A stretch of 25,552 nt of DNA from a virus. Taxonomy: Duplodnaviria; Heunggongvirae; Uroviricota; Caudoviricetes. The notes beneath the pieces are model-generated. The model saw only the letters and a list, made by a program, of their open reading frames with translations. It ran no database searches and was not told the origin of the DNA. A program made the translations under genes and the position numbers. Numbering within the stretch: position 1 is the first letter of the stretch; each line of letters begins with the position of its first letter. The stretch lies in IMG/VR virus record IMGVR_UViG_2706794697_000002. One strand, given 5' to 3'. Below, piece by piece: positions 1 to 24,785 of this stretch.

Positions 1-83
1 AGGGACAGCTGATAGAAACAGAAGCCACTGGAGCACCTCAAAAACACCATCATACACTAAATCAGTAAGTTGGCAGCATCACC
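1..83 (-). mobile_element. insA: IS1 terminal segment (left inverted repeat plus first 9 codons of insA); the element continues beyond the window start
   Basis: Reverse complement of 1..83 reads GGTGATGCTGCCAACTTACTGAT...GTGGCTTCTGTTTCTATCAGCTGTCCCT, which matches the IS1 IRL and the InsA start MASVSISCP as I recall them. The IS1 boundary is at 83/84. Confidence 0.85.
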
Positions 84-402
84 AGCCTTCTTGAGGCTAC
101 CACCTGTTTTCAGGTGTCATTCAGACGTGATTTGCCCCAGATTGGGAAAGCACGCTTTTTTCTCAGCTATCGTCCTCTTATTTTGCCGTTACATTTCTTT
201 TTGCATTCTAATGATTAATTTACAATAATAATATCGGTAATTATTGAGTAATAATAAATTAATTATTGCAAATGTAATTTAATTCCATCTTCGCGTTATA
301 TTCCAATCTTTAATCTCCGCATGGAACAAGTTGCATGCGTGACTATATTAAGACGACTTATAACCACCAAAACATTTGCTTTGCAAGCAAAAACAGTGAC
401 CA

Positions 403-431
403 TTGACTCTAAGAAAATTCCGATCTATTGT
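403..431 (+). promoter_or_regulatory. Putative sigma70-like promoter (-35 TTGACT at 403..408, 17-nt spacer, -10 TATTGT at 426..431)
   Basis: Hexamers and spacing read directly from the sequence. The region is AT-rich, so a chance match is quite possible. Confidence 0.25.
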
Positions 432-465
432 TAGGGTCATCAAAGTTACTTAACAGTATTCCGAA

Positions 466-567
466 ATGAAAATACAAAGCAAGCTAATTGTCTTATTAAA
501 CATTATTATTGCATTTATATTATTTGAGCTTTTAGCTCAAAAATTTGGTTTGAGTACATTATTTTAA
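466..567 (+). CDS. Hypothetical 33-aa hydrophobic peptide (MKIQSKLIVLLNIIIAFILFELLAQKFGLSTLF)
   Basis: Translated by hand; below the ORF-track size cutoff. Basic N-terminus followed by a single predicted transmembrane stretch. No clear Shine-Dalgarno, and AT-rich DNA readily produces such ORFs by chance. Confidence 0.2.
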   Translation: MKIQSKLIVLLNIIIAFILFELLAQKFGLSTLF

Positions 568-717
568 AGCAAGATAAACAATATCGGGCACTCTAGTTTT
601 TATAATTAACAATTAAACGTCCATAAAATGTTATTTACTTTTCTTCGCTATTGTCATATCTTAATATAGTGGCTTACGCCACTCTACTTTCATCACATTT
701 TGTACGTTTATGTACTC

Positions 718-749
718 GCCATGAAGCTCTTTCATGGCGATTTTTTATT
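718..749 (+). terminator. Putative intrinsic terminator (stem GCCATGA / TCATGGC, 7-nt loop, then TTTTTTATT)
   Basis: Hairpin 718..738 followed by a T-run at 741..749 on the plus strand. The orientation fits a rightward transcript from the AT-rich island and not the end of tfa. Confidence 0.45.
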
Positions 750-832
750 CTTAATCCAAGAACATACTCCCTACCTATAGCAAAATCACTTTTTTAACAA
801 AAGAATAACGTATTTAGGTAATCATTACGAAT

Positions 833-1414
833 TTACCCTATAGGTGCTACTGGCCATTCAATATCCGGTGCAGTTGATGTATCAACACGGTTCAGCAACA
901 CCCGATACTTTTTCCAAGCTTCCAGCAACAAGGTTTCTTTCTCCGTTGCGATCTCCAGATCCACAGCATCCTGAAGCGGCGCTATATGCTCACTGGCTAC
1001 CTGCATCAGGCTGTTTTTTGTTTCTTCCGCCTCCCGGATCCGGAACAGTTTTTCTGCTTCCGTATCCTTCACCCAGGCTGTGCCGTTCCACTTCTGAAAC
1101 TCCCCTTCCGGGGATAACCAGGTGACATTTTCCGGTAATGAGCCGAGTTCAGAAATAAATAACGCGTCGCCGGAAGCCACGTCATAAACCGTTTTACCCC
1201 GATGATCTTCAACGAGATGCCACGATGACTCATCACTGTTGAAAACAGCCACGAAACCAGCCGGAATATCTGGCGGTGCAATATCGGTACTGTTTGCAGG
1301 CAGACCTGTATGAGGCGGAATATATGCGTCACCTTCACCAATAAATTCATTAGTTCCGGCCAGCAGGTTATAAATTTTTATGGTCCGTGCTTGTTCACTC
1401 ATTCTGAATGCCAT
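833..1414 (-). CDS. tfa: Tail fibre assembly protein Tfa (193 aa)
   Basis: ORF translation [38 protein letters not shown]... is near-identical to lambda Tfa as recalled. Its start overlaps the stf stop (TAATG). Confidence 0.93.
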
Positions 1415-4400
1415 TATGCGAGCCTCACAATATAGTTAAATGCGATGTTTTTGACGGTGTTTTCCGCGTTACCAGCAGCGTTAACGGTGATGGTGTGTCC
1501 ATGTGAACCAATCGCAACAGAGTGCGTATGAGCACCAATACCGACAGTATGCGCGTGTGCACCCGCAGATGCTGCTGTGCCGGACAGTGAGTGTGTATGG
1601 TTTCCTTCTGAAGATGATTTACCTACCCATTGGGAGGTGCCACTGGTTAATGAGCCACTGATACCAACCTGATTAGTCCCGCTAACTTGAGTACTCCCTG
1701 CCGGAAACATTCCAGTAGGTTGACTCCCGCTATTCGTTCTGGGCCCAGTCTGACTATGTTGGTGGGCCCCAGCTGAACTTGTAGAGCCGCTCAGACTGTG
1801 CGTATGCGCCCCGGTGTTATTCGTGGATTTAGTGCCGTAATCAAACGACGATGTGGTTTTCGTCCCCAAATCCGTACTGGATGCGCTGGCGCTGTGGGTG
1901 TGCGATTTAATGCCATCCTGTTCCTGAGACAATACGGCACGACCACTGGCGGGCTTGCCCTTAATCGTCCAGCCACGCATATCAGGGATCACGCCTGACG
2001 GATAAGCGGCTGCAAGTTTCGGGTAAGCAGATTTGTCAAAAGTCTGCCCCTGCATCAGGGCATAACCAGACGGAACGGTATCTGATGGCCACGGGATTGG
2101 TGCACCGACTGGATAAAACTCTGCAGGAGGATGAGCCGAGGTGTAAAGCTGCGCCCACGGCGACCAGTTTGCGTCGGTCGTATCCCGTCGTGAACGAATA
2201 AATGCCGGAGCATGAGCACCGCTTGTACCACTCCAGCCGATGAGTAACTCACCTTCGCCAACGGCTGTCATCCCTTTCAGGTGAATGATATTTCCATACG
2301 CTGTTGGATATCCGTTGTTATACACCTCGTATAACTCAAGACCTGCTGCCCCCTGCGTATTGTCTGTCAGCGCGGCTACCCGACCTTTTGAAGCCAGATT
2401 AACTGATGATACTGCTGTTCCACCTGACGGTAGCGCCCCGATCTCTGATGCCGTTGGCTTATTTCTGGAGTTATAGTCCCTTCGCCAGCCAGGTGAATAA
2501 TCTGTTCCGTGATTAATATAGGTAAACTGGGCGTTGGTTGTTCCGCCACCGCTGGATGTGGTCGGAGTGGTAATGCGGATCGTCATCGCTGACTTTATCC
2601 CCATTACTTCAATGACAGCTCCGGCGAGATGAATATTACCGCAGCCAGTATCAGTAATGATTTTATTATTGCCATAAGACCAGGAACCCTTGCACATCCA
2701 GTATGGATGGTTAAATGCTCCCTGAGAATCCAGCCACTCGATAAACTGTGCAGTCGTCCAGTTTCCTGTTGTTGTGCTTACTGACCCACCGAAGGCACGG
2801 CAGGCACCAATATTTTTCGTAAAGGTGTCTTTGCCAGGGATATCCGCACCGTTCTGATCTTTCTGCAGACGTTTCTCAGCATTGTCATTGGCTGCTTTTA
2901 CTGCCTTTGGCGTTGCCGCCAGCGTTTCAGACGTGCTGTTGGTCGCGCTGCTTAGCTGGATTATCCCTTTCTGTGCTGTCGTTGCATCCTGTGCGGTGTA
3001 TTTCCCGTTAGCCAGGTCATACGCGGCCTTAACGGCTTTTGGTGTTGCCGCCAGTGACTCGGAAGTGCTGTTAGTCGCACTACTGAGCTGTACTATCCCC
3101 TTTTTCGTCGTGCTCGCATCCTCAAGCGCCACGGCGGATGCAATATCCTCTGCCCGTTTTGCCGCTGTCTCAGCGCGCGTTGCTGCAGATTCCGCCGTAC
3201 TTTTGCTCTGAGCTGCTGCCGTCGCACTACCAGCAGCCTCTGTCGCCTTCGNNNNNNNNNNNNNNNNNNNNNNNNNNNNNNNNNNNNNNNNNNNNNNNNN
3301 NNNNNNNNNNNNNNNNNNNNNNNNNNNNNNNNNNNNNNNNNNNNNNNNNNNNNNNNNNNNNNNNNNNNNNNNNNNNNNNNNNNNNNNNNNNNNNNNNNNN
3401 NNNNNNNNNNNNNNNNNNNNNNNNNNNNNNNNNNNNNNNNNNNNNNNNNNNNNNNNNNNNNNNNNNNNNNNNNNNNNNNNNNNNNNNNNNNNNNNNNNNN
3501 NNNNNNNNNNNNNNNNNNNNATGCGGCGCTTTCTGCCGATTTTCCGGCGGCGGTGGCACTGGCTGAGGCCTGCCCGGCACTTGTTGACGCGGCGCTGGCA
3601 GACGACGCAGCCGCTGTTTTTGAGCCTGCCGCAGCTGAGGCACTCTGTCCCGCTGCCGTTTCAGAAGACCTGGCGTTCGTCTCGGACGTTTTGGCCGCCT
3701 TCGCAGAATTTGCAGCCGCCGTCGCCGAGGAAGCTGCGCTACTGGCGCTTGATGATGCGTTCGTTTCTGATGATTTTGCCGCCTCTTTTGAAGCCGACGC
3801 ATCCCGGGCTGAGGTGGCAGCTTCTGACGCTTTCGTGGTCGCGGTGGATGCAGAAGTGGCTGCTGATTGTTGTGACGCTGCCGCATTCGTTTCTAACGTT
3901 TTCGCCGCACCGGCACTGGTAGCCGCCGCGCTTTTTGAGGACTCTGCAGCGGCAGCACTTTTTGAGGCTTCAGTGGCCTTTGTTGATGCCGTTCCTGCGC
4001 TGGAAGACGCTGACTGAGCCGACGAAGCGGCCTGTCCGGCTGACGTGCTGGCTGCACGTGCTGAATCTGCAGCATCAGTCGCATGGGTTGCCGCCTCACG
4101 GGCTGATGTGCTGGCATCGCTGGCTGATTTCTTCGCGGCTGCCGTGTTCTGTGCCACCGCGGACGCGTTACGCGCCACCTCTTCCACCATCAGCTCAAAA
4201 CGGCGCAGTGCCTCCGGACGGGCATCATCCTCCGTCATGGCACCGAGAAAATCATTCAGCGTACCGGGTCGGGAATCTTCATACACGGTGATGGTCCCGG
4301 CATGTGACGGCGGGAATCCTTCCACCAACAGAATAACGCTGTACTGACCGTACTCAACGTCCATGCTGTAACGCCCGGCTTCATCCGGATTTTCTGAGGC

Positions 4401-4514
4401 CAGCGTGTTCACCACCACCGTGGTGCTGTTACGTTTTGCTTTCAGCTGGATTGTGCAGTTCTGTACCGGTTTTCCTGTGCCGTCTTTCAGTACACCTGAA
4501 ATCTTTACTGCCAT
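1414..4514 (-). CDS. stf: Side tail fibre Stf, apparently one continuous gene interrupted by the N-run
   Basis: N-terminus [26 protein letters not shown]... follows a GGGGTG ribosome-binding site, with ATG at 4514..4512. The track's 572-aa ORF frame stays open upstream of 3132 all the way to the gap edge at 3251. The C-terminal part matches lambda Stf (SAYPKLA...[11 protein letters not shown]). The Arg-rich tail of track ORF 3093..4520 is a frame artefact of the N-run. Confidence 0.85.
3252..3520. other. Run of 269 N (assembly gap or masked sequence) inside the stf Ala/Ser/Thr-rich repeat region
   Basis: Literal n characters in the sequence. Confidence 1.
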
Positions 4515-4523
4515 ATTCACCCC

Positions 4524-4552
4524 ACAAAAAAGCCCGCCTGAACCGGCGGGCT
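4524..4552 (-). terminator. Intrinsic terminator between lom and stf (stem AGCCCGCC / GGCGGGCT, then U-run on the minus-strand transcript)
   Basis: Hairpin at 4531..4552 with an A-run on the plus strand at 4526..4530; read on the minus strand this is hairpin followed by TTTTTTGT. Confidence 0.6.
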
Positions 4553-4577
4553 GTCATAACACTGTGTTACCTGGCTA

Positions 4578-5034
4578 ATCAGAATTTATAACCGACACCC
4601 ACGATGAAACCGTCAGTGCGCCAGAGACGTGTTGCTGTGGCGACCGTCATCACTTCCGGTCAGCACATCGTGCGTTTTCCCCTTATTGTCAGTTACGCGG
4701 ATATAATCCCCGGAAAAAGTCGACACACGGCTGTAAGCCACACCCGCCATCGCATACGCGCTGAACCATTCATTCACGCGCACAGACTGTAACGGGTCAG
4801 CTGGCGATTCTTGTCTCCTGCATAGCTGAATGACGTCACCAGCCCCAGCGTATCCGTAAACTCATAACGGTATTTCACGTTAATCCCGTTCAGATCATCA
4901 CTGCCGGGAACGTTGGTCCGGGCATGAAGATACCCCGCGCTCAGCGTGGACTGATGTTCAGACGCCCATGCAGGCGCACCGGATACGGCCAGGCAAATGG
5001 CTGCGGACAAAATGGCTGCACAAACTTTACGCAT
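4578..5034 (-). pseudogene. lom: lom outer-membrane protein pseudogene, broken by two frame-shifting internal deletions
   Basis: Frame 1 gives MRKVCAAILSAAICLAVSGAPAWASEHQ...QLTRYS then stops. A second frame gives VNEWFSAYAMAGVAYSRVSTFSGDY...SLA. A third gives TDGFIVGVGYKF-stop. All three match successive parts of lambda Lom, so roughly 160 bp are missing relative to lambda in two pieces. Confidence 0.75.
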
Positions 5035-5055
5035 AATTACCTCTCGCTTTTCTGC

Positions 5056-5082
5056 AATAAAAAAGGCGTCATTCCTGACGCC
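5056..5082 (-). terminator. Putative intrinsic terminator downstream of J (stem GGCGTCA / TGACGCC, loop TTCC, then U-run on the minus-strand transcript)
   Basis: Hairpin 5065..5082 preceded on the plus strand by AATAAAAAA at 5056..5064. Confidence 0.5.
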
Positions 5083-5104
5083 ATTTATTGGGGTTATAAA
5101 TATT

Positions 5105-8100
5105 TCAACGAATACTGATGCCGGAAGCCGCTTTTTTGGTCACAATCACCGTACAGTCGGTGATATTGCCTGCCCCCTGATTGCCTTTCTGGAAAATCTT
5201 AAACTCCAGAGTGACGCTACCACCACCACTAGGCATATCAATAACTGCACTGTAACTACCGGGAATGGCCCCTTTAGTTTCTCTGGATGCGATTAATACG
5301 CCGTTTTTGCGAACTTCAAAACCATAACCCGTGTATCGCGTGCCTCCTGGGTTATTTCCGCTCCCCGGATCGTCATACGCTATACCGTTAAAAATAATGG
5401 GCGGAATAATAATCTGGCGGTCAAAGTTATGATCATCGCTTATGGTGACTGTAACCGTCCCGTTTGGTGTTTCCGTGTTACCCCACGTACCAGCCTGTTT
5501 CGGAAATGATTTGGATACAGCTTTAACGAAGTCACCTCTGACCTGAGTCGCCTCCAGCATGCCCTTAATCGTACAGTTTTCATTTACCGTGACATTGTTG
5601 AGCGTCCCGGCGTTCGCATTCACACTGCCACTGATATCCGCATTTTTAGCGGTCAGCTTTCCGTCCGGAGTCAGGGAAAATGCCGATGGATTTCCACCGC
5701 TGGTAATGGTGGGGGCCGTCAGGCGTTTCAGGAACACGTCGTTCATGAATATCTGATCGCCCTGACCAACAAACATCGGTTTTGTGTTGCCATTCGCAGG
5801 ATTAACCATCGCAATCCTGTCCGCCGCCAGCAGCACCTGACTCTGCATGCCGTCAGGGGTGTTCTCAATACCGGCACCAATACCCGCGATATAAAGGCGT
5901 CCGTCCTGCATCTGCTGCAGCTTCACAGCCCACATGCTGTTCAGGTTATTATTTGTATCAACCTGAACCTTCTGTATCTGCTGAATTGCCGCACTCTGGT
6001 CTTCCAGTTTCTTATTGACGGTCTGCGTGATTTCATTGCTGACATCCGTAATGGACGTCCTGATTTCAGCCAGGTCAGGCGCAAGCTGACCGTTATCAAT
6101 CTGCGTCCACAGCTCCTGAGCCAGATGGGTTTTCCCTATCTCGCCTTTGAAAAAATCCAGATAACCGGATGCATCATCACTCGGCTGACCAACAGCCTCC
6201 ACGAATGCCGATTTGCCAACGGTGTTCACACTGCGGATATAAAAGTAATAATCATGGCCCGGTTTGATATTGATACTGGCGGCTATCCAGTACAGCGCCG
6301 TGCCAAGATAGCGTGCTGTGGTTTCAACCTGCCTGATATCCGCAATCCGCTTTTCCGAGAACCAGAACTCAAACTGTACCGTCGGATCATAAACCGCAAG
6401 ATGCGGCGTGGCGGTTATCTGAAAATAGCCCGGCGTCAGCTCAATCCGCGACAGCGCTGCCGGTGCGGCAATCCGGAACGATACCGACGCCGGATCGCCC
6501 TGCTGCCCCCACGCATTTACTGCCCGGACTGTCAGCCTGTAGTTCCCCAGCGCCAGTTGTGTGAAGCGGTAAGTGGTTTCCGTCGTCCGGGCCGTGCTGA
6601 CCAGCCGCTCACTGCCGTCATCCGCTGTTACGGTCAGACGGAGCAGGAAGCTCACGCCCTTCACCACCTTCGGCGTGTCCCAGCGCGCCAGCACCTGATA
6701 TTCCCCGCTGTCTGCGGTGACTTCGGCAGTCAGGTGCTGCACCGCTGGCGGCGTGACACCATTCACCGTGCCGCTCTGGTCGCCGTCAAAGTGCGCCCCG
6801 TTATCCACGATGGCTTCTTTTTCCGGCACATGCTGCACGGCGGTGATGGCATACGTGCCGTCGTCGTTCTCACGGATACTCACGCAGCGGAACAATCGCT
6901 GGTGCAGCGTCGGCAGCTTCAGCCCCCACACGCTGTATTCAGCAACACCGTCAGGAACACGGCTCACTTTTACCTTCACGCCGTCGGTGACGGACTGGAC
7001 CTCCACGCTGACCGGATTCCCCTGCCCGTCAACCAGGCTTATCAGCGTGGTGCCGGAGGATGGCAGCGTGATTTCACGGTCGAGCGTCAGCGTCCGGGTC
7101 TGGCTGTTCACCGCCAGCACGCGCCCGCCGGTGCGGATACCGGCATAGTCATCATCGCAGATTTCAATGACATCGCCCGGTACATGACGAAGCCCTTCAG
7201 CACCCACGCTGAAATCCACGGTCTGCGTCTCCAGCAGTTCCGTTTTAATCAGCCACAGCCCGGCGCGGTGTGCCTGCCCCCGGCTGGTACAGCCAAAGGC
7301 ATCCATCTTCGTGACGTTACGACCGTAACGGACAATGGCCTGCGTATCCTCCACAAGCTCTGTCGCCGTCTCCCAGCCGTTATCCGGGTCAATCCAGTTC
7401 ACCTCAACGGCATTATGGCGGTCTTTCAGGGCGCTGAAACTGTAGCGGAACGGCGCGCCATCATCCGGCATCACCACATTACTGNNNNNNNNNNNNNNNN
7501 NNNNNNNNNNNNNNNNNNNNNNNNNNNNNNNNNNNNNNNNNNNNNNNNNNNNNNNNNNNNNNNNNNNNNNNNNNNNNNNNNNNNNNNNNNNNNNNNNNNN
7601 NNNNNNNNNNNNNNNNNNNNNNNNNNNNNNNNNNNNNNNNNNNNNNNNNNNNNNNNNNNNNNNNNNNNNNNNNNNNNNNNNNNNNNNNNNNNNNNNNNNN
7701 NCCATTTGTCCACATCCGCCGCACCAAGACGTTTCCCCATGCCATAGCGCGGATGGGTCAGCATATCCCACAGACACCAGGCCATGTTGTTGCTGTATGC
7801 CGGTTTTAACGTTCCGTCCCAGATACCGCTGTATTGCCGCGTCTGCGGATTATAGTTCGACGGCACCTGCAGAATGCGCCCGCGAAGATGATAATTACGG
7901 CTCACCTGCTGGCTGCCGAACTGCTCCGAATCCACCTGTACGCCGACCAGTGCCGTGTTCGGGTAGCACTGTTTCACATCGATGATTTCGGTGTATGACG
8001 ACCAGAGCGTTTTGTTCTGCAGCTGGTCTGTGGTGCTGTCCGGCGTCATTCTGCGCATCCGGATATTAAACGGGCGCGGCGGCAGGTTATCCACCACCAC

Positions 8101-9330: not shown

Positions 9331-10221
9331 TTGTCGGTATACCTCTCTCGTTTGCTCAGTTGTTCAGGAATATGGTGCAGCAGCTCGCCGTCACCACAGT
9401 AAATGGCGGCATGATTCGGCACCGATGAACCAAAACAGCACAGCAGCACATCGCCCGGCTGCGCCGCTGACAACGGCACCTGATACAGCCCTGTGGCCTC
9501 CAGATTATCCAGATAGAGATTCTGACCGTGACGCCACCAGTCATCCTCACGATGAAAATCCGGCATCTCAATCCCCGCCAGATGNNNNNNNNNNNNNNNN
9601 NNNNNNNNNNNNNNNNNNNNNNNNNNNNNNNNNNNNNNNNNNNNNNNNNNNNNNNNNNNNNNNNNNNNNNNNNNNNNNNNNNNNNNNNNNNNNNNNNNNN
9701 NNNNNNNNNNNNNNNNNNNNNNNNNNNNNNNNNNNNNNNNNNNNNNNNNNNNNNNNNNNNNNNNNNNNNNNNNNNNNNNNNNNNNNNNNNNNNNNNNNNN
9801 NNNNNNNNNNNNNNNNNNNNNNNNNNNNNNNNNNNNNNNNNNNNNNNNNNNNNNNNNNNNNNNNCGTCACCCCGTGCTCAAAGCGCCGCCCGGTAAGATG
9901 TGGCACACAGCGGAACTTGTGAATCGCCCCCCGGCAGACCAGCCACCACGGCAAATCACTCTGCACCTGCAGCCGCCGGTCGGCCTCACTCAGCCAGGGC
10001 AGACCACCGGGGTGGCTGTGGACCAGTGCCACAATCTCACCCTGCATCTCTGCCTGCAGCCAGTCTTCCGGCGACATACGGAAATACGCCTCCGGCTCAC
10101 CGGAGATATTCACGCAGGGGAAATATCTTTCCCCCTCCGGCGTTCTTACCACGAAGCCGCACGACTCCGCTGGAGCACATCGCCGGGCGTGCGCCAGAAT
10201 CGCTGATTCTGTCTCTGTCAT
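9228..10221 (-). CDS. K: Tail tip assembly protein K (JAMM/MPN-like N-terminal domain plus NlpC/P60-like C-terminal domain), interrupted by an N-run
   Basis: N-terminal part MTETESAILAHARRC... carries a JAMM-type motif HSHPGGLPWLSEAD. The C-terminal part (track ORF 9228..9566) has the NlpC/P60-like Cys/His context GDVLLCCFGSSVPNHAAIYCGDGELLHHI. The reading frame across the N-run cannot be verified. Confidence 0.82.
9585..9864. other. Run of 280 N inside K
   Basis: Literal n characters. Confidence 1.
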
Positions 10222-23643: not shown

Positions 23644-24163
23644 TCAGCAACCCCGGTATCAGTTCATCCAGCGCGGCTGCTTTGTTCATGGCTTTGATGA
23701 TATCCCGTTTCAGGAAATCAACATGTCGGTTTTCCAGTTCCGGAAAACGCCGCTGCACCGACAGGGGGATCCCGTCGAGAATACTGGCAATTTCACCTGC
23801 GATCCGCGACAGCACGAAAGTACAGAATGCGGTTTCCACCACTTCAGCGGAGTCTCTGGCATTTTTCAGCTCCTGTGCGTCGGCCTGCGCACGCGTAAGT
23901 CGATGGCGTTCGTACTCAATAGTCCCTGGCTGGAGATCTGTCTCGCTGGCCTGCCGCAGTTCTTCAACTTCCCGGCGCAGCTTTTCGTTCTCAATTTCAG
24001 CATCCCTTTCGGCATACCATCTTATAACGGCGGCAGAGTCATAAAGCACCTCATTACCCTTGCCACCGCCTCGCAGAACGGGCATTCCCTGTTCCTGCCA
24101 GTTCTGAATGGTACGGATACTCGCACCGAAAATGTCAGCCAGCTGCTTTTTGTTGACTTCCAT
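23618..24163 (-). CDS. Nu1: Terminase small subunit Nu1 (181 aa)
   Basis: MEVNKKQLADIFGASIRTIQNWQEQGMPVLRGGGKGNEVLYDSAAV... is near-identical to lambda Nu1 as recalled; overlaps the A start by 26 nt. Confidence 0.97.
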
Positions 24164-24340
24164 TGTTCATTCCACGGACAAAAACAGAGAAAGGAAACGA
24201 CAGAGGCCAAAAAGCCCGTTTTCAGCACCTGTCGTTTCCTTTCTTTTCAGGGGGTGTTTTAAATAAAAACATTAGGTTACGGCGAAGAAGAACGGAAACG
24301 CCTTAAACCGGAAAATTGTCATAAATAGCGAAAACCCGCG
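24164..24340 (-). promoter_or_regulatory. cosB-equivalent region between cosN and Nu1
   Basis: The reverse complement aligns almost base-for-base with the first ~190 nt of the lambda genome as recalled (CGCGGGTTTTCGCTATTTATGA.AATTTTCCGGTTTAAGGCGTTTCC...). Individual R and IHF sites were not mapped. Confidence 0.7.
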
Positions 24341-24352
24341 CGCCTTCCGCCC
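24341..24352 (-). other. cosN-equivalent 12-mer (GGGCGGAAGGCG on the minus strand), at the position of the lambda cohesive end
   Basis: Flanked on one side by the lambda left-end-like sequence and on the other by lambda right-end-like sequence (...CCGACAGGTTACG). The 12-mer differs from canonical GGGCGGCGACCT at 5 positions. Confidence 0.7.
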
Positions 24353-24551
24353 CGTAACCTGTCGGATCGCCGGAAAGGACCCGCAAAATGATAATAATTA
24401 TCATCTACATGTCACAACGTGCATCTACGCCATCAAACCACGTCAAATAATCAATTATGACGCAGGTATCGTATTAATTGATCTGCATCAACTTAACGTA
24501 AAAACAACTTCAGACAATACAAATCAGCGACACTGAATACAGGGCAACCTC

Positions 24552-24785
24552 ATGTCAACGAAGAACAGAACCCGCAGAACAACAACCCGCAACATCCGCT
24601 TTCCTAACCAAATGATTGAACAAATTAACATCGCTCTTGTTCAAAAAGGGTCCGGGAATTTCTCAGCCTGGGTCATTGAAGCCTGCCGCCGGAGACTGTG
24701 CTCAGAAAAAAGAGTTTCGCCTGAAGCAAACAAAGAAAAGAGTGACATTACTGAATTGCTCAGAAAACAGGTTAGACCAGATTGA
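24552..24785 (+). CDS. Small basic ribbon-helix-helix-like protein (77 aa), antisense to the late operon and adjacent to cos
   Basis: MSTKNRTRRTTTRNIRFPNQMIEQINIALVQKGSGNFSAWVIEACRRRL... shows a beta-strand, helix, G-x-S turn, helix pattern typical of Arc/CopG-type folds. From memory, an almost identical ORF lies on the complementary strand at the right end of lambda; this is unverified. Confidence 0.6.
   Translation: MSTKNRTRRTTTRNIRFPNQMIEQINIALVQKGSGNFSAWVIEACRRRLCSEKRVSPEANKEKSDITELLRKQVRPD

Follow-up and report, generated by a model that had tools for sequence, protein, structure and literature searches.

The right half-site of cosN in lambda-like phages

According to Feiss et al. (PMC4669245), lambda-like phages commonly differ at bp 7-12 of cosN, as the right half of the site is functionally tolerant. 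Many right-half mutations have a minimal phenotype, whereas the symmetric mutations of the left half are severe. The asymmetry is due to TerS bound at cosB R3, which anchors TerL for the bottom-strand nick, and this nick is positioned by the cosB-anchored terminase and not by the local sequence (PMC4669245). As natural variants the same paper cites N15 and phiD326, which deviate at bp 9 and 12, and Gifsy-1, which deviates at bp 8, 9 and 11. In experiments lambda TerL cut cosN-N15 as efficiently as cosN-lambda. The cosQ site and the CG pairs that flank cosN are conserved. A 2-nt mismatch between cohesive ends cuts the yield about fourfold, and displacement of cosB leads to mis-positioned nicking (PMC4669245).

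The cos site of the window

The window, i.e. the whole stretch of 25,552 nucleotides analysed here, contains a cos site on its minus strand. The cosN 12-mer reads GGGCGGAAGGCG (24352..24341) and the one of lambda (NC_001416) GGGCGGCGACCT. It is preceded on that strand by ...GGTTACG (...CCGACAGGTTACG) and followed by CGCGGGTTTTCGC; a longer read gives ...GGGTCCTTTCCGGCGATCCGACAGGTTACG, GGGCGGAAGGCG and CGCGGGTTTTCGCTATTTATGACAATTTTCCGGTTTAAGGCGTTTCCGTTCTT... in this order. The features of the site and the adjoining terminase genes are listed in Table 1.

Table 1. Features of the cos region and terminase genes of the window.
Feature	Position	Strand	Basis and comparison with lambda
cosQ heptamer GGGTCCT, packaging termination signal	24376..24382	-	-30..-24 from the nick, as lambda 48473-48479
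16-bp cosN, CG-GGGCGGAAGGCG-CG	24339..24354	-	CG pairs conserved at both nick sites (PMC4669245)
Cohesive-end segment of cosN, variant GGGCGGAAGGCG	24341..24352	-	sequence; lambda alignment; same 12-mer in PhiR46_1
Predicted 5' overhangs: left end GGGCGGAAGGCG, right end CGCCTTCCGCCC	from 24341..24352	-	inferred
cosB R3 (AGGCGTTTCCGTTCTT), TerS binding site	24288..24303	-	bp 50-65, identical to lambda; position according to PMC9026076
R3-R2 spacer, houses the IHF site I1 in lambda	24245..24287	-	5 substitutions: bp 71, 73, 78, 97, 102
cosB R2, inverted R box	24229..24244	-	identical to lambda
cosB R1	24188..24203	-	identical to lambda
Nu1 (TerS), 181 aa	23618..24163	-	3 substitutions
A (TerL, gpA), 641 aa	21718..23643	-	4 substitutions: T151S, D185E, L404R, T466I

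Alignment of 260 nt on either side of cosN with NC_001416 confirmed the five-base deviation which an earlier sequence-only reading of the window had pointed out. The changes are C to A at bp 7, G to A at bp 8, A to G at bp 9, C to G at bp 10 and T to G at bp 12, while bp 11 is the same in both. All of them lie within bp 7-12, and the left half GGGCGG as well as the flanking CG pairs are intact. Also in agreement with that reading, the surroundings are nearly those of lambda: the 260 nt towards cosQ contain ten differences and bp 13-190 eight, all of them scattered, and cosQ and the three R boxes are unchanged in sequence and spacing. Nu1 and gpA differ from their lambda counterparts in only 3 of 181 and 4 of 641 residues, respectively. 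By its layout the site can be assigned to the lambda-type cosQ-cosN-cosB sites, with the GGGCGG half, the CG flanks, cosQ, the R boxes and the adjoining genes for Nu1 and gpA. Judged from its sequence, the window allele retains every feature which the published cosN studies call important.

The cohesive ends are expected to be about as stable as those of lambda. Nearest-neighbour stacking amounts to -19.8 kcal/mol for the window allele and -20.2 kcal/mol for lambda, and the GC content is 10/12 in both.

The clustering of the differences is far beyond chance and needs explaining. The nearest canonical relative examined, a prophage of E. coli O26:H11 str. 11368, differs from the window at nine positions within 24639..23950 (690 nt), five of which fall inside 24341-24346 (Fisher p = 6e-10; the corresponding comparison with lambda gives p = 6e-7). 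The earlier statement that such a cluster is unlike neutral drift thus holds with respect to its non-randomness; yet variation at exactly these positions is to be expected, as it is common among lambda-like phages (PMC4669245).

Occurrence of the allele

Of 5426 complete E. coli genomes, 155 contain the 12-mer GGGCGGAAGGCG. It occupies 166 places there, 150 in chromosomes and 16 on plasmid records. These numbers come from a megablast search with a 32-mer centred on the variant, whose matches represent the exact allele since any exact word of 28 nt within it includes the complete 12-mer. A 70-nt cos core was matched at all at 5534 places in 3464 complete E. coli genomes, and the variant thus accounts for about 3% (166/5534) of the lambda-type cos places. 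The exact allele is furthermore present in 48 cosQ-anchored IMG/VR contigs, many of which are predicted prophages and not virions, and in 27 metagenome contigs, mostly from human gut. All 27 metagenome contigs contain GGGCGG as left half, although the scan had left those six bases free. Among the species-representative genomes only Escherichia sp. E1V33 contains the allele according to a scan with a 22-mer; the longer 32-mer gave no match in that set. Neither strand of the exact 12-mer could be found in a phage paper within the searchable text, which does not include the dedicated survey of Vahanian et al. 2017.

The allele is not bound to one type of cosB. In most cases it is paired with the R3 of lambda. 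An N15/Monarch-like R3 accompanies it in four IMG/VR and four metagenome contigs, and a phage-21-type R3 at a single locus (L125), which is a deleted remnant.

Two deposited phage genomes carry the allele, PhiR46_1 (PV340565.1, host ECOR13) and Ravinvirus YDC107_1 (CP025712.1). A supplement (PMC13190303) lists PhiR46.1 among the temperate phages that Brenes & Laub 2025 isolated and that served in plaquing panels, which points to plaque formation by a phage with this cos end. As prophages both are linear plasmids of the N15-like (Ravinvirus) type and possess a telL site or protelomerase. The same allele and the same architecture are found in CP056845.1, a 46-kb plasmid record. These three are telomere phage-plasmids of about 46 kb, which combine lambda-type cosB, terminase, head and tail genes with N15-type modules for replication, immunity and the protelomerase. 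For another 15 or more plasmid records the match with the 70-mer is so close that they cannot contain the canonical block. They range from 33.9 to 91.5 kb, with many of them at about 46 kb, and originate from E. coli, Shigella sonnei, E. albertii and E. fergusonii. The allele is not restricted to plasmids: E. coli 582 (NZ_CP120568.1 2824304-2864714) contains it in an integrated lambdoid prophage, all structural genes of which are annotated as intact.

Among the possibilities named in the sequence-only reading, the real variant cohesive end is borne out, as the same 12-mer occurs in complete genomes, in IMG/VR, in metagenomes and in the isolated temperate phage PhiR46_1. That reading would have been given up if the variant were common among functional lambdoid phages, and to a large extent this is so (155 genomes; PhiR46_1 and YDC107_1). 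Therefore most of the interest of the anomaly is gone.

Comparison with other natural cosN alleles

The cosQ-anchored scans of IMG/VR, in which the left half was fixed, also provide a census of right halves. The canonical CGACCT occurs at least 117 times, followed by CGTCCG (52, N15 type), CAGCGT (49, changed at bp 8, 9 and 11) and AAGGCG (48). Rarer are CGTCCT (15), CGACCG (10), CAGACT (6), CAGACG (5), CAGCGG (4) and singletons. AAGGCG is therefore one of the three commonest non-canonical lambda-like ends in these scans, and on lambda-type right flanks (CGCGGGTT) no other alternative to the canonical end is nearly as frequent. As rare one- and two-step neighbours of AAGGCG we found CAGGCG, AAGGCT, CAGGCT and CAACCT. 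A stepwise origin, possibly via the 'CAG...' class, is plausible because such low-frequency neighbours exist.

With the cosN of lambda, 21 and 434 (GGGCGGCGACCT) the window shares cosQ, GGGCGG, the CG flanks, C11, the R3/R2/R1 boxes with their spacing, and a near-identical Nu1 and gpA, but the two kinds of ends would mismatch at 5 of 12 positions (bp 7, 8, 9, 10 and 12). The cosN of N15 and phiD326 (GGGCGGCGTCCG, changed at bp 9 and 12) is likewise a natural right-half variant and has G12 in common with the window allele, which is also found in N15-like Ravinvirus phage-plasmids. The two alleles differ, however, at bp 7-10, and the N15 site has another right flank (CGCAGATT), a simple cosB and another TerS specificity, whereas the window allele resides on lambda-type flanks.

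The Gifsy-1-type cosN, which we found as GGGCGGCAGCGT and labelled according to the positions quoted in PMC4669245 and not from a Gifsy-1 sequence, shares A8 and G9 with the window allele and is likewise changed in the right half. It deviates by a G at bp 11, by its flank CGCAGGAT and by another R3 region. CAGACG, CAGGCG and CAGGCT are rare intermediates between the Gifsy-1-type and the window classes. The end of mEp213/LLS (GGGCGGCGCGCT) is another right-half variant of the lambda-like 12-nt end (PMC12315714), but is substituted at bp 9 and 10 and belongs to phages with head genes that are not lambda-like.

Terminase genes and the cosN allele

We also looked for residues of the terminase which vary together with the allele. 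For this purpose gpA and Nu1 of 11-13 variant loci were compared with those of 38-68 canonical loci, the lambda-type gpA set comprising 11 and 38 loci, respectively. No residue of gpA or Nu1 separates the alleles among these loci. The best-linked residue is I466 of gpA, which is present at 10 of 11 variant and 9 of 38 canonical loci. L404R occurs at three of the 11 variant loci, among them the window, and at none of the 38 canonical ones. The association of L404R and T466I with the variant allele is probably a matter of linkage. Both residues are located in the C-terminal, nuclease-containing half.

In residues 380-641 of gpA, the C-terminal half with the endonuclease, several variant loci, PhiR46_1 among them, show 100% identity to canonical loci. 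A co-evolution of the terminase with the cosN allele was rejected, as no residue is strictly linked and the same nuclease half is found with both alleles. These comparisons suggest that an unchanged TerL may suffice for the variant allele.

Interpretation of the variant cosN

We regard the cosN of the window as a genuine, functional natural right-half allele in an otherwise canonical lambda cos, located beside lambda-type terminase genes, and assign a probability of about 0.85 to this reading. The changes are confined to bp 7-12 and recur in independent genomes, among them that of an isolated temperate phage, as is characteristic for the class of natural right-half variants.

In the proposed course of events Nu1 dimers would bind R3, R2 and R1, IHF would bend the DNA at I1, and gpA would thereby be anchored. 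One gpA would nick the bottom strand between bp 12 and 13 (G12/C13), largely independent of the sequence, and a second gpA the top strand between G-1 and G1, beside the conserved left half GGGCGG. We infer these nick positions, as well as the cutting efficiency on the AAGGCG allele. The products would be 12-nt 5' overhangs, GGGCGGAAGGCG and CGCCTTCCGCCC, with about the stability of those of lambda, which would separate and later re-anneal on infection. Tolerated substitutions would stay self-complementary and could accumulate because both chromosome ends derive from the same cos duplex. In a study by Cue and Feiss from 1998, the bottom-strand nick at packaging termination was reportedly found to be cosQ-dependent as well.

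A tolerant right half alone leaves several things unexplained, namely that there are a few discrete haplotypes with multiple substitutions, that intermediates are scarce, and that five of six bases are changed amid near-canonical flanks. Relaxed constraint is insufficient, and therefore the age of the allele together with recombination near cos, or some selection, has to be added. Probably the allele is old, and the contrast between block and flanks results from flanks which are constrained (cosQ, R boxes) and often exchanged. Since mismatched ends survive to replication (PMC4669245), annealing of heterologous cohesive ends could splice the 12-mer to a foreign flank exactly at the nick. The hexamer AAGGCG is also present at bp 49-54 of the window site, where R3 starts, but the flanks do not prolong the match. 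By our estimate one such 6-mer match within about 400 nt has a chance of roughly 1 in 5, and a templated multi-base mutation was set aside as source of the block.

Alternative explanations and state of the window prophage

The sequence-only reading had also named a sequencing or assembly error and a decayed cos as possible sources of the 12-mer. Both were rejected, since hundreds of independent assemblies and an isolated temperate phage contain exactly this sequence. Indeed, the window is interrupted by three runs of N (3252-3520, 269 nt; 7485-7701, 217 nt; 9585-9864, 280 nt) inside stf, J and K. The length of these runs does not correspond to the homologous stretches of PhiR46_1, as 280 N stand for about 30 nt in K and J is too short by 4 nt. 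The window must thus be a gapped or masked draft, in which the apparent frameshifts of these two genes are uninterpretable. Nevertheless, an error at cosN has a negligible probability when complete genomes contain the exact 12-mer with its flanks 166 times, and 48 IMG/VR contigs, 27 metagenome contigs and two phage records contain it as well. A cos that became non-functional in a defective prophage and acquired the block after constraint was lost is very improbable, too. Such a decay would be in line with the fragmented lom gene of the window, with K, J and stf being unreadable across the N runs, and with the deletion of TerS and TerL sequences at the allele-bearing locus L125. However, it would not leave cosQ, the left half, the CG flanks and the three R boxes untouched and at the same time change five of six adjacent bases, and the allele persists in phage-plasmids that are maintained as well as in a temperate phage that was isolated. 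Moreover, the terminase, head and N-free tail genes of the window are full-length with 81-100% identity to PhiR46_1.

That the terminase cuts at shifted positions, so that the true overhang is not made up of these 12 nt, is highly improbable. The rotational symmetry of cosN has decreased from 10/16 bp in lambda to 8/16 bp in the window, and mis-positioned nicking is known after displacement of cosB (PMC4669245). On the other hand, the cosQ-cosN-R3 spacing is exactly that of lambda, the CG pairs at both nick sites are kept, and G12 is also found in N15, whose 12-nt end is annotated. Maintenance of the functional allele by selection instead of drift, as a second cohesive-end compatibility class within the Escherichia phages of lambda specificity, is unlikely, although the discrete haplotypes with rare intermediates, the block of five changes in six bases amid near-identical flanks and the sharing of the allele by prophages, phage-plasmids and satellite-like islands are in favour of it. 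As a 2-nt mismatch already reduces the yield about fourfold (PMC4669245), five mismatches should be worse. Against this selective explanation, concatemers are normally homotypic, with mismatched ends arising only after recombination of co-replicating phages. A share of 166 in 5534 cos places in complete E. coli genomes fits hitch-hiking, and the literature reads bp 7-12 as simply unselected.

The apparent breaks in K and J had been considered as signs of a defective prophage, which was rejected as they are runs of N. The alignment of the lom homologue (4582-5034, minus strand) to Lom of PhiR46_1 is broken, with no Ns involved, into three pieces that lie in different frames. Probably this non-essential moron gene has become a pseudogene. 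Outside of stf, J, K and lom all head, tail and terminase genes of the window are full-length.

Significance of the allele

With respect to the functional natural right-half allele, the variant is ordinary and explained by the known asymmetry of cosN, of which it is a clean natural example; the understanding of cos cleavage is unchanged. Of practical use is the allele for the prediction of phage termini, for the annotation of cos sites and for the design of cosmids and packaging substrates from wild lambdoids, since GGGCGGAAGGCG ends will not anneal cleanly to lambda arms. If a separate compatibility class did exist, chromosomes with mixed ends would cyclise poorly due to the five mismatches, which would partly hinder gene exchange between lambdoids that infect the same cell. 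Hybrid chromosomes would then be penalised and lineages with lambda packaging specificity partly isolated.

Prophages, phage-plasmids and satellite-like elements share one circulating cohesive-end allele. We propose that recombination has carried it into integrated prophages, N15-like phage-plasmids and satellite-like islands.

Further elements with the AAGGCG allele

The prophage of E. coli 582 is apparently complete and seems to be a full-length relative of DLP12, the cryptic prophage of K-12, from which its genes emrE, ybcK, ybcN, rusA and ylcG are known.

At locus L125 the AAGGCG cosN is fused to a 21-type R3 (AATCATGTCGGTACTT), while phage 21 itself has AATCGTGTCGGTACTT. This decayed mosaic has lost most of TerS as well as codons 1-55 of TerL. 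Because the locus is such a deleted remnant, it is no evidence for a use of the allele by a 21-type terminase.

A group of satellite-like elements combines the AAGGCG cosN and cosQ with an N15/Monarch-like R3 (GGTGGTGGTTTTGTTG). It consists of L139 (about 1-6300, cosN at 4116), L143, L169, L175 and four metagenome contigs. These elements encode their own Nu1-family TerS of 183 aa, which is 35% identical to Nu1 of the window, and no TerL was found within 3 kb. For cutting at the AAGGCG allele they would need the TerL of a helper. Upstream they contain a D5-type primase, an SSB-like ORF (recognized by eye only), a capsid-E-family protein and AlpA, and downstream an Abi_C gene.
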